A stretch of DNA of 64,000 nt from Promethearchaeota archaeon (GCA_029838195.1 JALGVJ010000001.1:160001-224000), one strand, 5' to 3'. Positions 32,048 through 38,072 are shown, numbered from the stretch's first letter. Numbers and translations are program-made. The notes: generated by a model not told the origin, from the letters alone.

Positions 32048-33448
32048 TTATTCATTCCAAATTGATTTTATACTCCAAGCATCTATTTTTTTAAATTTCA
32101 TGGCTCCGTTTTTAACTGCTATCATTAATTTGCTTTTTCTCCTAATTTTGAAAAAATACCGGGTGGTCAAACAATAAACATGATTAAAAAAAACTTCTAT
32201 TACGGAATTATCGATAAATACGTGTAGCATATTCTCTTCTTTCTTGATATCATGAGGATCAATTGAACATTCATCCTCTCCACATTGAATTTTGTTAGAA
32301 GCCAAATCCATGGTTAAAAAAACCTCCCGATTAGAAGTAATCAGTTCTGATAATTTTAATTGAAAACTTTCTTTACGAGGATTCTTAAATTGGATAATAA
32401 GTTCAACGCATTTATCTTCTATTCTTTCTATAATAGTAAGGGAATTGGAATCGATCGTGATGTTCTCAAGGTGTACGTGTCGTTCTCTCAATTTTTCAAG
32501 TTCCTTAACGGGTCTTATGAGGAGTCGATTATCACTACTTTCTCTCAATTCTCGAGGTAACGTTAAACATCCATTCCATCCCTTGATTTCTCCGCCTCCA
32601 AAAATCCACCCCCACATCAATATTCTTCCGCTTGGCTCTTTCATCGTTGCAGGAGCATACATCCACTTACCATGATCTAAAAGGTGCCATTTTCCGTGCT
32701 TGAAATCTTGATTTTTCCATGTTCCAATAGTATAAATAACCTTTTTCTTTGGAGATACGGAAACAATTAATACTCGCTTCTCCTTGCCTCCTAAGGAGAA
32801 AAAATTCGGGCATTCCCAATTTTTTCCTGTTTCTCGAGAACCATCTCCAAGACAAAGTATTTTAATGAATTTCCAATGTATTAAGTCGGAAGAACTATAT
32901 AATAAAACTACGGGCTTTTTTAATCTTTTTTTCTCTCTCACGTGCCCCGATAAAACCATGTACCATTGGTTTCCTTCTTTCCATGCATGAGGATCACGCC
33001 AATCCCAAATTTGTAGATTTCCGTGAATCTTTAACGTCATTGTAGGATTTTTTTCATGTTTGATCCACGACACCATATCATCCGTGCTAAATGCTAACCA
33101 TTGCTCGGCTCCCGTTAATTGGTCTCTCTGGTGTCCTATACTTGTATAAATGATAGTGGGGATATTGTCATTTAGCACGCACGTTCCGGAAAAACAATGT
33201 TCTTCCCCTTTCTTATGCGATGGTTTTAGAGCAATTGGTAAATGTTGCCAAAATACTAAATCTTTACTTTTAGCATGTCCCCAATGGATATTCCCCCATA
33301 TATCTCCTTCTGGATTATGCTGATAAAAAAGATGATATTCCTCTTTATAATAAATTGGACCATTTGGATCGTTGATCCAATTTGCTGGAGGAAGAAAATG
33401 ATATTTTGGACGGTGGGGATCTCTTGATAAAAGCTTGCTAACTTCCAT
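32048..33448 (-). CDS. GH32 beta-fructofuranosidase/sucrose-6-P hydrolase
   Basis: WINDPNG, HWGHA, FSG, RDP, WECP, DNSVIEVF. Confidence 0.95.
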   Translation of the reverse strand: MEVSKLLSRDPHRPKYHFLPPANWINDPNGPIYYKEEYHLFYQHNPEGDIWGNIHWGHAKSKDLVFWQHLPIALKPSHKKGEEHCFSGTCVLNDNIPTIIYTSIGHQRDQLTGAEQWLAFSTDDMVSWIKHEKNPTMTLKIHGNLQIWDWRDPHAWKEGNQWYMVLSGHVREKKRLKKPVVLLYSSSDLIHWKFIKILCLGDGSRETGKNWECPNFFSLGGKEKRVLIVSVSPKKKVIYTIGTWKNQDFKHGKWHLLDHGKWMYAPATMKEPSGRILMWGWIFGGGEIKGWNGCLTLPRELRESSDNRLLIRPVKELEKLRERHVHLENITIDSNSLTIIERIEDKCVELIIQFKNPRKESFQLKLSELITSNREVFLTMDLASNKIQCGEDECSIDPHDIKKEENMLHVFIDNSVIEVFFNHVYCLTTRYFFKIRRKSKLMIAVKNGAMKFKKIDAWSIKSIWNE

Positions 33449-33494
33449 TTCTGATTTACCCGCACCTTATTTAACTTTAAAATGTTACCCCTCT

Positions 33495-34169
33495 CTACGA
33501 ATTAAATCCATATTTACCGAGTAAAGGGACAAATCTAACGCCTGTTATGCTTTTTGTTTCAAACTTATTACCTTTCTTTTTAATCACGTATAGATTTTGC
33601 CCAAAAGATTTAGAACCTGCCGGAATGCAAAGAATTCCTCCATCACGTAATTGTTCTTTCAGGGGTTTTGGAATCTTTGAAGGAGAAGCTGCTGTCACGA
33701 GAATTTTATCATATGGTGCTTTTTCTGGATATCCCAATGTACCATCTCCGTGAATGACCGTGATTCTATCCTCATACCCAGCTAATTGAATATTTTTTAT
33801 AGCGGTTTCTGCTAAACTTTTAATACGTTCAACCGAAAAAATATGTCCCCTCTGTTCCGAATTTTCGGGTGCAATGATCTCAGCACATAAGGCCGCATGA
33901 TACCCCGAACCCGTTCCCACTTCTAATAAAATATCTCCGGGCTTTAATTCCAAGTATTCGCACATCATGGCATTCATGTGTGGTGCGCTAATAGTTTGTC
34001 CAGCTCCTATGCTTAATGGAGTATCCATGTATGCGGAAGAACGCGCATCTTCTGGAACAAACAGCTCTCGTGGTATCTTTCGCATGGCATTAATGACAGC
34101 AGGAGTTTTCAAGATTCCCCTTTTGATTAGATTATCCACTAAACGGTTTCTCTTTTCTTCAAAATTCAT
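33495..34169 (-). CDS. pcm: Protein-L-isoaspartate O-methyltransferase
   Basis: PRELF, GQTISAPHM, LEVGTGSGYHAA, GDGTLG..APYDKI.VTAA, VRFVPL. Confidence 0.97.
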   Translation of the reverse strand: MNFEEKRNRLVDNLIKRGILKTPAVINAMRKIPRELFVPEDARSSAYMDTPLSIGAGQTISAPHMNAMMCEYLELKPGDILLEVGTGSGYHAALCAEIIAPENSEQRGHIFSVERIKSLAETAIKNIQLAGYEDRITVIHGDGTLGYPEKAPYDKILVTAASPSKIPKPLKEQLRDGGILCIPAGSKSFGQNLYVIKKKGNKFETKSITGVRFVPLLGKYGFNS

Positions 34170-34513
34170 GATTAATGGTCGTAAACAAACTATATCGATA
34201 AAACGTATAAAAACATTTTTTCGTGTGTTTATAATTATAAAAACTTTATCGTTATTTAAAAATCGAGCCTTGAGAATTCTTTAAATTCCTTTTAAATAAA
34301 ATCATTAAAAGATATTAAAAGTATAAAGATTAGATATTATTTCTATTGTTTTTAAGAAGCAATTTAAAAAAATCAAAAAAAATATATTTTCAAGAAGCTT
34401 TTTCATGTTCTTTTCTTAATAAAAGAGTATATTAGGAAAAAATTGAAAGAAAAAAGAATAAAGAAAATTCCGTCGAAAAAAGAGCGTCTAAACGAATTCC
34501 AGAAAAAATACTT

Positions 34514-36001
34514 TTATTTAGTAGCTTTCAACTCTTTTAATATTATTCCAAGAGTAATAATGAAAACGGCCATGGTCGATATAATCCAAATCAATTTATA
34601 GGATTCCAAGCGTATGGAGATGATGGGCGTTTCTAATTCGTAAAATTCATGGGGGGCATTTGTCTTAACCCACGTCACTCCTAAGCACCATAATTCGCAG
34701 AATCTCTCTACTGAATCAATCGTGTATACCATGACGGGAAAATCTTGTTGATAAAAAATTCGATATTCCTCATTCGTGTAGGCGTCTCCTGTATTGATGT
34801 ATTCATATCCCGTTAATACATCCATGGCATCTTTATACATGAGCATGTTCATTATTTTTTCGTTTTTAGTTGGAATCATTATCTTACTTAGATTAATTCC
34901 TGAACGAAGGGTAGTGTCCAAAATGATTTCAAAATACTCGTCGTGATAAGGATGGTCGTTGGAGGGAGATTTCATATCAAAATCGAGATAAATATCGTGA
35001 TTTTTCGTAAATTTCAAAACTTCTGCCAAAGTGGGTATTTTTACACCCCTATATGATTCGGCTTGTTCGGGAGATATGATACCAGCGGCAATGACACCGA
35101 AAGGATCTTTATCCACGAACCAAGAACCTGCATCTAATTGCTTGAGTTCCGAAATGGTGAAATTCTCAGCAGGTTCACTAACTCTATCGGGAAAAACATC
35201 CCGAATATTTGTTGTTCTCGTAAGAGTATCATCGTGCATCAAAAAGGGAACGCCATCCTTGCTGATTTGAATATCCACTTCCCAACCCACGATACCGAAT
35301 TGAAGGGCTACTTCCGCCGCGATAAGAGTGTTTTCTGGGCCTAAAGAAGCCCCTCCTCGATGTGCAATTAAATCTGGTTTTGGAGGCAAATCGCCTTCGT
35401 GGACATTTGCCGGGATATAAAAAAAGGGTGTGGCAAAGGCAAATCCATATCCGATTAAAATACACGTGATTATAATAATGCTCTTTCCTTTGGCACGAAT
35501 GATTTTATTCGAGAGATTGGCTTTTAAATGAGGTATATTTTTAAGAAGAGGGTACACCAATAAAATAAGAATTATCTGTATGGTTAGAAAAATAAAAATG
35601 CTATAAAATTCAAAATATTGAGGAATTAATCGAGAATAGCTTCCTAACTCATCAAGGAGAAAAGAGATGAGAATATTAAAAATTAACATCAAGACGAAAG
35701 GAATGAGCTTATACATCCTTGAAAGGATGAGTTCATTTCCCTTTAGTAATTTCTTGAAACTAAAGATTAAAAATATTAAGGAATAGAGCAACGGTATCGT
35801 GAAGAGAAAATATAAAAATAAGATTAGATTAAAATTAAAACCCCACCAATCAGAGACCGTTGTGTTGATTTCTCCCCAATAAGGTCTTAAAATCCATAAA
35901 AATAACAAAAATACGCCAAAATTAATCACACAAGCAAGATAAATGATAATCCATTTTTTTCCTTTTTTATTTTTTAATTTTTCAATCAGCACGATAAACA
36001 C
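34514..36001 (-). CDS. Six-TM glycerophosphodiester phosphodiesterase, GDE2/GDE3 (GDPD5/GDPD2)-like
   Basis: 5 N-terminal TM + GDPD (AHRG, PENT, EVD, GVPFLMHD..L.RTTN) + 1 C-terminal TM; true start possibly GTG 35992 after GAGGTG. Confidence 0.85.
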   Translation of the reverse strand: MFIVLIEKLKNKKGKKWIIIYLACVINFGVFLLFLWILRPYWGEINTTVSDWWGFNFNLILFLYFLFTIPLLYSLIFLIFSFKKLLKGNELILSRMYKLIPFVLMLIFNILISFLLDELGSYSRLIPQYFEFYSIFIFLTIQIILILLVYPLLKNIPHLKANLSNKIIRAKGKSIIIITCILIGYGFAFATPFFYIPANVHEGDLPPKPDLIAHRGGASLGPENTLIAAEVALQFGIVGWEVDIQISKDGVPFLMHDDTLTRTTNIRDVFPDRVSEPAENFTISELKQLDAGSWFVDKDPFGVIAAGIISPEQAESYRGVKIPTLAEVLKFTKNHDIYLDFDMKSPSNDHPYHDEYFEIILDTTLRSGINLSKIMIPTKNEKIMNMLMYKDAMDVLTGYEYINTGDAYTNEEYRIFYQQDFPVMVYTIDSVERFCELWCLGVTWVKTNAPHEFYELETPIISIRLESYKLIWIISTMAVFIITLGIILKELKATK

Positions 36002-36026
36002 CTCTATTTTAATTCATGCGTGTTTT

Positions 36027-38072
36027 TTAATTAAATTTTGTAATGACGGCACAATGATCCGAAGCTATAGAACAATAAACGTGACTCGATTTTGCGTTCA
36101 TGTCAGGGGAACATAGAATATAATCGATTCTTTTTCTCGGGATAAAATTCTCATCAAAATGCCCGGTATAGCCCGCATTGCGTGCAGTATCTATAAAATT
36201 CATGGGTGAAGCTTTAATTAATTGATATTCCTCTGAGGTGGGTTCAAAGTTAAAATCTCCTAACCAGATCAGTTTGTTTTTATCTTTTTCTTGCTCGATC
36301 ACGGAAAGGATATAAGGAACTTGCACCAATCGATCTTGATGGTTCGTAGAGAGATGCGTAATGAATAATGTCCAGATTTCATTGCCGATTATGATTTTTG
36401 CTTTTATCATGGATCTAGGCTCTGTAGATTCTTTAGCTTGGGGGAGATGAATGATCTCAGCGGAACTGATGGGATATTTACTCAATAATGCATTACCATA
36501 ATGCTTGTAAAATGTATAACCATAAAAATAATACATGTCAAGATGATGAGCGAAATAGGAGGTTAAATCAACAAAAGATGTTTTCAAGGCTCCTAAATCT
36601 ACTTCATTCAATCCAAGAATGTCCGGATCGTTTTGTTTGATTTCTTCAGCAATTCTTTCCGGATCAAACACATCATCCACTCCAATTGCATTGTGGATGT
36701 TCCATGTCATTACAATTGGGTGCTCTCTTGGTGTGGATTCCGGAATCCTTTGAATGAGAAGACTCCCAAAAGAACCAATTAAGATAATAAAAATTATCAC
36801 GTATAAAACTTTAATGGGCATTTTCCAGTTCCAATTCAATAATTTTCGATTTAAATTTACCCGTAAATTCTTTCCCTCCATTAGGAAAATGAGGAAAGTC
36901 CCAATTAGCGAAAGGATGAATATATTATTTATCAAGAGAGATAGATATTCATACCACAAGAATTGGACTTGTAAAATGATGAAAAAGAAATTCGTAAAGA
37001 AAAAAATGACCAATCCATGATATAACTTTCTTCTATTCTGAAAAGAATAAAAAATAAAACAGTAGAAAAAGTAAATCACGAGCGAAAAAATATTAACAAT
37101 CTCCAAAATCGTTAAATAAAAGGTCGATACTCCAGGAATTGGCTCATTTTCTAAAATAAAAATCGCTAATAGATTTAAAATAAAAGATGCCCCTATAAAT
37201 GTGAATATTAGCTTTTTTAGAAACGATTGGGACTTAGTATTCATTATTTCATGAATAACATAGCTCCCTATAAATATCACGGCCGTAATGAGGAGAATAT
37301 AATATGTAAATCCATAAGAAATCCAATTTAATTTACCATTCGGAAGCAGATTGTTATAACTACGATCCAACACGTCATATGCCGAAATAGCCATGGGATT
37401 AAAAACCCAAGTTAAAATGAGCAGAAATAAAATTCCGAAAATAATGAAATGAACTAGGGAGATTTCTTGCCCTTTCCTTTCTTCCTTCTCAATGCTCTCC
37501 ATCCCTCGCTCTAGATCTTCTAATTTCTTAGGCGAAAACATGCTCCAATTCATGTACAATAAAAAACCTGAGAAAATAATAATTGGCATGATTTTTATGG
37601 AATCGAACGTCAAACTTAAAGATGCGTTTGCCATTAAAAAAACTAATTGAATACTCGCACCCACGCATCCTCCAAAAAGTAATGTTGAAAAGCCTCCCCC
37701 ATTCGCTCCCAATTCCATCAAATACATTAATTCAATGATGACTAATACAGAACTAAAAAATAAGATAAAATTGAAAATCATGAGTAAGGAAGAAATCATG
37801 AGAAATTGGACCACAATTCGAGAAATTACTACAAGATATATCAAAACATGGATTTTTAATCGAAAATTAAAAAAATTTTTGTAAAAAATCACCAGTTCCA
37901 AGATGATGCTAATAACTATAATAATAATCGTGGGTAAAATCGTGCCGATTCTACTTAAATTCATGAAAACATGTGCATTCGTATTTACCATGATATTGCT
38001 AAACGATTCCATGATGAAATAGAAAAGAATCGCTTGAAATAATAAAATCCGCACTTTTTTTTCCACGATCAT
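36027..38072 (-). CDS. Polytopic membrane protein with C-terminal EEP (exonuclease/endonuclease/phosphatase) domain, CWH43/PGAP2IP-like architecture
   Basis: ~12-13 TM then TWNIH, GLNEVD, YGNALLSKYPI, ITHLS, LGDFN, IDYI, SDH. Confidence 0.8.
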   Translation of the reverse strand: MIVEKKVRILLFQAILFYFIMESFSNIMVNTNAHVFMNLSRIGTILPTIIIIVISIILELVIFYKNFFNFRLKIHVLIYLVVISRIVVQFLMISSLLMIFNFILFFSSVLVIIELMYLMELGANGGGFSTLLFGGCVGASIQLVFLMANASLSLTFDSIKIMPIIIFSGFLLYMNWSMFSPKKLEDLERGMESIEKEERKGQEISLVHFIIFGILFLLILTWVFNPMAISAYDVLDRSYNNLLPNGKLNWISYGFTYYILLITAVIFIGSYVIHEIMNTKSQSFLKKLIFTFIGASFILNLLAIFILENEPIPGVSTFYLTILEIVNIFSLVIYFFYCFIFYSFQNRRKLYHGLVIFFFTNFFFIILQVQFLWYEYLSLLINNIFILSLIGTFLIFLMEGKNLRVNLNRKLLNWNWKMPIKVLYVIIFIILIGSFGSLLIQRIPESTPREHPIVMTWNIHNAIGVDDVFDPERIAEEIKQNDPDILGLNEVDLGALKTSFVDLTSYFAHHLDMYYFYGYTFYKHYGNALLSKYPISSAEIIHLPQAKESTEPRSMIKAKIIIGNEIWTLFITHLSTNHQDRLVQVPYILSVIEQEKDKNKLIWLGDFNFEPTSEEYQLIKASPMNFIDTARNAGYTGHFDENFIPRKRIDYILCSPDMNAKSSHVYCSIASDHCAVITKFN

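Follow-up and report, generated by a model that had tools for sequence, protein, structure and literature searches.

The 64,000-nucleotide stretch of a Loki-type Asgard genome analysed here (Promethearchaeota archaeon, GCA_029838195.1 JALGVJ010000001.1:160001-224000; hereafter the window) carries on its minus strand, at 34514..36001, a complete gene for a membrane-bound member of the glycerophosphodiesterase (GDPD) family, in which five transmembrane (TM) helices precede the catalytic domain and a sixth (TM6) follows it. Homology to the animal proteins GDPD5, GDPD2 and GDPD4, also known as GDE2, GDE3 and GDE6, holds separately for the membrane domain, for the catalytic domain and for TM6. Six-TM GDEs have been studied almost solely as animal cell-surface enzymes that release glycosylphosphatidylinositol (GPI)-anchored proteins in neuronal differentiation, and the window gene is a new archaeal member of this already known family. 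It belongs to an Asgard-specific clade, with members in Loki-, Heimdall-, Thor-, Hel-, Hermod- and Hodarchaeota, that is distinct from a clade of Chloroflexota (Anaerolineae) and from the eukaryotic clade. The six-TM GDPD is thus not a clean eukaryotic signature protein, and represents a cross-domain family shared with one bacterial lineage. Our literature searches turned up no paper that connects Asgard archaea to GDPD5 or to glycerophosphodiesterases.

Membrane architecture and homology to animal proteins

The 495-residue protein begins with a five-helix membrane domain (residues 17-193; 35423..35953), continues with an L-P-x-K-P linker and the GDPD catalytic TIM barrel (residues 203-456; 34634..35395), and closes with TM6 (residues 468-490; 34532..34600), which carries the family-specific Y468 and W472 and is followed by a lysine-rich, predicted cytoplasmic tail of 5-7 residues; all of these lie on the minus strand. 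Kyte-Doolittle hydropathy peaks at residues 17-35, 59-77, 99-117, 135-153, 175-193 and 470-488, and an AlphaFold2 model made with 28 homologues (pLDDT 91.7, pTM 0.89) shows six long helices (15-37, 59-86, 95-132, 134-162, 170-194 and 465-494) around an alpha/beta barrel. The same layout is found in the named animal proteins, and the 5+1 TM arrangement, in which the GDPD domain separates TM5 from TM6, as read from the sequence in the initial annotation, is therefore real. Lysine and arginine residues number six in the N-terminus, one in loop 1, five in loop 2, one in loop 3, six in loop 4 and three in the C-terminal tail. These counts strongly fit the positive-inside rule, which would place the lysine-rich N-terminus in the cytoplasm together with loops 2 and 4 and the C-terminal tail, and on that basis the barrel is predicted to be extracellular. 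This would be the topology of GDE2, with its catalytic domain outside and its termini in the cytoplasm (PMC7033719), and the same layout and predicted topology hold for GDE3 and GDE6.

When 1.84 billion representatives were searched exhaustively with the profile, 492 proteins fell below 1e-30, including many of 500-650 residues that align across positions ~10-500 of the Asgard profile. Named among them are GDPD5-like proteins of a crinoid, a snail and a starfish, Xenopus GDPD5, bird GDPD2, tunicate proteins and GDPD5/GDPD4 of fish, frog and bird, with full-length profile E-values of 5e-94 for the crinoid protein, 3e-89 for bird GDPD2 and 1e-79 for Xenopus GDPD5. By BLASTP, the region from TM5 through TM6 shares ~31% identity with the animal proteins over 310-337 residues (Xenopus GDPD5, 2e-44; crinoid protein, 1e-52).

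The membrane domain was also compared on its own, using hhalign to align a profile of Asgard residues 10-198 with the corresponding eukaryotic profile. This comparison gave a probability of 98.1% (E 1e-13, 176 columns), or 97.3% (E 2e-11, 175 columns) when the alignments were built per group, and reversed or column-shuffled controls reached at most 1.1%. A hidden Markov model of the Asgard TM region retrieved genuine N-termini only, and none of ~90 reversed or shuffled decoys. Moreover, in the reciprocal test within the host genome, which the initial annotation had proposed as a check, Xenopus GDPD5 (residues 38-518) picked the window gene with an E-value of 3e-38 over the four soluble paralogues, of which three scored, over 60-76 residues, the best at 5e-7 over 76 residues. 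Because the TM-only profiles match, the controls do not and the reciprocal test holds, the similarity extends beyond the generic GDPD domain, to which the initial annotation had allowed that it might be confined; the TM region is homologous by itself and the homology to GDPD5, GDPD2 and GDPD4 is full-length.

The window protein is nevertheless an orthologue of no single animal paralogue, and falls in a separate Asgard clade. It also differs from the animal GDEs in its ends, which measure ~16 residues at the N-terminus and 5-7 at the C-terminus, in comparison with animal tails of ~40-50 and ~80-110 residues that serve in trafficking control. The long trafficking tails are a feature of the animal clade and not of the core fold.

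Catalytic domain and family-specific motifs

The barrel is identified by Pfam, by PDB sequence matches, by Foldseek and by invariant columns. The only Pfam match is to GDPD (PF03009; E 5e-25, residues 214-387), which together with hundreds of full-length homologues places the open reading frame (ORF) far above chance. The catalytic and metal residues H214, R215, E241, D243, H256 and D342 are all present; among the Asgard members the first five are invariant and D342 is 97% conserved, the whole set being invariant in 28 Asgard sequences and common also to eukaryotes, Chloroflexota and soluble GDPDs. Sequence matches in the PDB are to GlpQ and other GDPDs, and Foldseek aligned the model with soluble GDPDs over the barrel only (TMt 0.66-0.77), the PDB being without any six-TM GDE; to our knowledge, no structure of one has been solved.

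The GDPD motifs were located as GDLPPKPDLIAHRG at residues 203-216, ISKDGVPFLMHDDTLTRTTN at 246-265, FP at 270-271, AGSWFVDKDPF at 291-301, HPY at 350-352 and LWCLGV at 437-442, with P459 ahead of TM6 and Y468-K-L-I-W472 within it. Translation and column statistics place all of the motifs quoted in the initial annotation within the ORF, and those that it gave for GDPD5 do resemble the real Xenopus and crinoid sequences; its P-x7-Y spacing was wrong, the actual one being P459-x8-Y468. It had also regarded these motifs as specific to the animal-type family, and here the statistics over four groups (29 Asgard, 15 Chloroflexota and 13 eukaryotic sequences and the 8 nearest soluble GDPDs) divide them about in half. 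HRG, PENT, E-x-D, DG..(L/M)HD, RTTN, FP, LDAGSWF and DP(F/Y) are equally conserved in the soluble outgroup, and several of them occur in Bacillus subtilis GlpQ. Specific to the six-TM proteins, and shared by the window protein with the animal GDEs, are the L-P-x-K-P linker, H350-P-Y, W438 in LW(C/L)xG, P459, Y468 and W472. D342 is likewise specific, as the third acidic ligand is D in the six-TM family and mostly E in soluble GDPDs.

Soluble and periplasmic GDPDs (GlpQ, UgpQ, the T. tengcongensis GDPD and the S. aureus lysoPG phospholipase D) share the TIM barrel and the HRG, PENT, ExD, HD, RTTN and AGSWF motifs with the window protein, but are without the helix bundle, TM6, LPxKP, HPY and W438. 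In Bacillota, the GDPDs with a GPDPase_memb domain (PF10110) also have a membrane domain fused to the GDPD, but it belongs to a different family, it matched nothing in the window protein by Pfam at E 0.01, and these proteins have no TM helix after the barrel. The structural match of TM ~0.5 between the PF10110 and six-TM types in the ESM Atlas was made with P0241, a metagenomic relative, and not with the window protein.

The loop between TM2 and TM3, which the initial annotation had listed as a further likeness to GDPD5, is a more particular case. The G-x2-L-x-L-x4-K pattern (G88...K98) is present in the window protein but is not typical of the Asgard family, only a minority of which have G at position 88, while 90% have P at position 93. 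Only a (Y/N/H)-K pair is shared in this loop, K98 occurring in 76% of Asgard and 69% of eukaryotic sequences; G88 and L93 give the window protein an animal-like look that is atypical among its Asgard relatives. The coding sequence runs from a GTG at 36001 to a TAA stop, in a window of ~32% G+C. A second in-frame GTG at 35992, three codons inside the first and with GAGGTG 6 nt upstream (35990-36006, minus strand), may be the true start and would give a protein of 492 residues.

Distribution

The best 120 database matches are full-length, with 35-65% identity, and those with an organism name all belong to Promethearchaeota, Hodarchaeota or Helarchaeota; among the named genome contigs, Heimdall-, Thor- and Hermodarchaeota are represented as well, and metagenome-assembled genomes of Promethearchaeum also have the gene. 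Its presence is patchy, extending to 62 of 400 Asgard genomes (21 of 85 genera, and 29 of the 134 genomes of the window's own family), and many near-complete Asgard genomes are without a six-TM GDPD. Of the five GDPD genes in the host genome (4.5 Mb, 96.6% complete, 7.9% contamination), four encode soluble proteins (245-266 residues) and the window gene alone has the membrane form. Public annotation assigns such proteins to the generic GDPD family, although some JGI records use the GDPD2 enzyme name.

Three contigs titled Deferrimicrobium, Nanopelagicaceae and Bathyarchaeia (L042, L057 and L054; SMAG_U14084, SMAG_U14091 and SMAG_U14241) were considered as non-Asgard hosts and set aside, as they have the same contigs and coordinates as the Asgard-phylum genomes G124, G255 and G091; the titles look like mislabels. 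Some Loki-type genomes have a tandem pair of six-TM GDPD genes (L057, 5527-8579; L069, 4029-7233; G268:C42:26528-29708).

The ESM Atlas pointed to a mostly bacterial cluster, and GTDB representative genomes were scanned with an alignment of a metagenomic clade lacking organism names. Matches were found in ~44 Chloroflexota genomes, most of them from Anaerolineae (Anaerolineaceae, Brevefilum, Anaerolineales and metagenome-assembled genomes titled Chloroflexia), spanning residues ~1-480 and lying on contigs of up to 3.2 Mb; these copies are not contamination. They have the full-length architecture, share 32-37% identity with Asgard members, and in many cases carry a longer C-terminal extension (550-680 residues in total length). 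Their TM region aligns with that of Asgard members at 96.8-97.3% and with that of eukaryotes at 93-96% by hhalign. The initial annotation had held that a six-TM form widespread in bacteria, with this protein grouping there, would count against its reading; the form does exist in bacteria but is rare, with a full-length match in 3 of 401 evenly sampled Chloroflexota genomes, and the window protein groups with Asgard archaea.

Among the matches listed, the named eukaryotic members come from Metazoa, from the ichthyosporean Chromosphaera perkinsii and from the Archamoebae Pelomyxa schiedti and Mastigamoeba balamuthi. A search with a Mastigamoeba balamuthi protein as query returned only its own paralogues. 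EukProt holds at least five six-TM-GDE-like gene models for this species (P0131, P0182, P0243, P0431 and P0432), including one of 886 residues with two GDPD stretches and one of 1122 residues annotated as pumilio-family. A deep-branching metagenomic group of 5+1 TM GDPDs (P0241, P0248, P0196 and P0252) has chordate GDPD2/5 as its nearest Atlas clusters, and two scans of metagenome contigs found no close relative of it.

Phylogeny

A 65-row outgroup-rooted tree (LG+C20+F+G4 PMSF, quick search) placed Eukaryota with Chloroflexota (SH-aLRT 96) opposite Asgard, with weak Asgard monophyly (38). With the long protist branches removed and a careful search, a 37-row set gave UFBoot/SH-aLRT values of 94/81 for Asgard, 100/100 for Chloroflexota, 100/100 for Eukaryota and 97/95 for Chloroflexota with Eukaryota, with the root between Asgard and the rest. 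In both trees the window protein groups with Asgard archaea and not with bacteria. Constraining Asgard and Eukaryota together cost 11.2 log-likelihood units in the 65-row set (p-AU 0.016) and 6.7 in the 37-row set (p-AU 0.0485), whereas Asgard with Chloroflexota (-6.2, p-AU 0.086, 37-row set) was not rejected. An early midpoint-rooted FastTree, in which Asgard and Chloroflexota grouped together, was set aside in favour of the outgroup-rooted mixture-model trees and illustrates how unstable the topology is. P0234, a metagenomic and soluble-looking GDPD of 272 residues, sits inside the Chloroflexota six-TM clade of the 65-row tree; it represents a fragmentary gene or else a protein that has secondarily lost its membrane helices.

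The Chloroflexota and eukaryotic stems are long (0.53 and 0.79), and because of this there may be attraction between them. By TM-region score, Asgard and eukaryotes form the strongest of the three pairs, at 73-87 versus 49-59 for Chloroflexota and eukaryotes. The Asgard part of the gene tree roughly follows the Asgard lineages, and the eukaryotes nest in no sampled Asgard lineage, Heimdall- and Hodarchaeota included. In our reading, the 5+1 layout was already present in a common ancestor of the three clades; their branching order is weakly resolved, and any transfer may have run in either direction.

Genomic neighbourhood

Upstream and co-oriented lies a gene (36027..38072, minus strand) for a 681-residue multi-TM protein with about a dozen hydrophobic segments and a C-terminal EEP/PGAP2IP-like domain (PF03372, 2.5e-23; PF23226, 1.1e-16), which ends 25 nt before the GDPD start. 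We considered a conserved operon of the two genes and rejected it, as beyond the window the adjacency recurs only in a genome of the same genus (L061 = G162), that is, in 1 of the ~21 Asgard loci that have 3.3 kb or more of upstream sequence, and in 0 of ~42 Chloroflexota loci. Since it is limited to a same-genus genome, the pairing is recent and lineage-specific.

Past the stop codon there is a T-rich tract (34440..34513, minus strand) that by sequence is a putative archaeal terminator, and an AT-rich non-coding spacer of ~340 nt separates the GDPD gene from the next gene downstream. At 32048-34169 on the minus strand lie genes for a protein-L-isoaspartate O-methyltransferase and a GH32 glycoside hydrolase with N- and C-terminal domains (E 3e-80), the latter being the second gene downstream of the GDPD.

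Of 35 Asgard loci, no more than 6 have any one neighbour in common; an MFS_2 transporter accompanies the gene in Heimdall loci, and a HAD phosphatase does so in some Loki loci. In Chloroflexota, a PfkB kinase and a C_GCAxxG_C_C protein follow the GDPD in about half of the loci (PfkB in 21/42), an association in Anaerolineae that hints at a catabolic operon; examples of a co-oriented PfkB-family kinase are L021 (7602-8561) and L028 (8329-9048). Searches of the host genome for PIG-M, the C13 peptidase family (Gpi8) and PIG-C gave no match, two of the three being without a positive control, and only generic PIG-L/LmbE-family deacetylases were found there.

Discussion

We propose that the window protein is very probably an archaeal six-TM GDE that acts as an outward-facing, metal-dependent phosphodiesterase at the membrane, and that its helix bundle is more than a tether, because the bundle is under selective constraint across three domains of life. 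As in GDE2, the GDPD domain would sit on the outer membrane face with both termini in the cytoplasm. From what is known of the family it would hydrolyse phosphodiesters at the membrane surface in a metal-dependent manner, the conserved helix bundle positioning the active site at the bilayer. The substrate may be a membrane lipid or a lipid-linked glycoconjugate, with its phosphodiester head group cleaved in the manner of phospholipase C (PLC) or D (PLD), or external glycerophosphodiesters near the membrane. GDE2 is PLD-like and GDE3 PLC-like, acting on GPI anchors and lysolipids (PMC7033719). A phospholipid head group or a lipid-linked glycoconjugate would be the more likely archaeal substrate, rather than a canonical GPI-anchored protein.

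Several considerations weigh against this proposal. The orientation is a prediction from the positive-inside rule. The animal GDEs act on GPI anchors, a substrate that is not simply transferable to the archaeal enzyme because PIG-M, a Gpi8-type C13 peptidase and PIG-C were undetected in the host genome. Lastly, the PfkB, MFS and HAD neighbours in Chloroflexota, Heimdall and Loki loci fit scavenging as well as they fit lipid processing.

Scavenging is indeed a serious rival, if on balance a somewhat doubtful one. The protein would then be a surface-tethered, GlpQ-like enzyme of a cell without an outer membrane, converting soluble environmental glycerophosphodiesters to glycerol-3-phosphate or alcohols for uptake, with a bundle that is mainly an anchor. 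Among solved structures the catalytic domain is indeed nearest to GlpQ-type enzymes, a sugar kinase, a sugar transporter and a phosphatase recur as neighbours in other lineages, a glycosidase lies two genes downstream in the window, and core GPI machinery was undetected in the host genome. However, one helix suffices to anchor a protein and yet the 5+1 bundle is conserved in sequence across three domains, all characterised relatives of the same layout act on membrane-anchored substrates (PMC7033719), and the conservation of neighbours across Asgard is low. We consider it rather improbable that the GDPD and the upstream Cwh43/PGAP2IP-like EEP protein work as a dedicated pair of enzymes that remodels and sheds a lipid anchor. 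Their genes point the same way with a gap of only 25 nt, they are so arranged in a same-genus genome as well, and the upstream protein matches the C-terminal nuclease-like domain of PGAP2IP (E 1e-16), but the adjacency is all but confined to the window among the loci compared, and the GPI transamidase and mannosyltransferase were undetected in the host genome.

As for origin, the initial annotation had put the protein forward as a candidate eukaryotic signature protein. Homologues are indeed present in Asgard archaea and in eukaryotes, but the family is not absent from other prokaryotes, given the Chloroflexota copies, and the best trees, weakly resolved as they are, do not place eukaryotes with or inside Asgard. 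A genuine signature protein would have been Asgard-born and would have reached the first eukaryotes by vertical descent, within a toolkit for lipid-anchor processing, with Anaerolineae acquiring it secondarily by horizontal transfer. This would agree with the broad spread inside Asgard and a gene tree that runs roughly along Asgard lineages, with the very narrow bacterial spread, with the Asgard-eukaryote match in the TM region and with a root between Asgard and the rest, and an Asgard origin has been inferred for GPI-anchor synthesis (PMC12872458). We nonetheless think it unlikely, as eukaryotes branch with Chloroflexota, the grouping of Asgard with eukaryotes is disfavoured in both data sets, the eukaryotes fall outside Heimdall- and Hodarchaeota, and fewer than one in six of the Asgard genomes carry the gene. 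Furthermore, among the matches listed the eukaryotic members come solely from Metazoa, one ichthyosporean and Archamoebae, a range that does not establish presence in the last eukaryotic common ancestor. Less likely still is the fuller scenario, in which an Asgard-born six-TM GDE sheds or remodels lipid-anchored surface molecules and was inherited by the eukaryotic stem, the Anaerolineae copies are secondary, and the grouping of Chloroflexota with eukaryotes is a long-branch artefact. The 2026 analysis that inferred the Asgard origin of GPI-anchor synthesis makes no mention of phosphodiesterases (PMC12872458).

Asgard archaea and one bacterial lineage thus possess the whole architecture of the six-TM GDEs, down to the helix bundle, and the family is far older than animals. 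The compact prokaryotic homologues, being without the long tails, are suited to structural and enzymatic work. For the debate on the membrane and lipid-processing functions that eukaryotes owe to Asgard archaea, the family provides a data point that is ambiguous.

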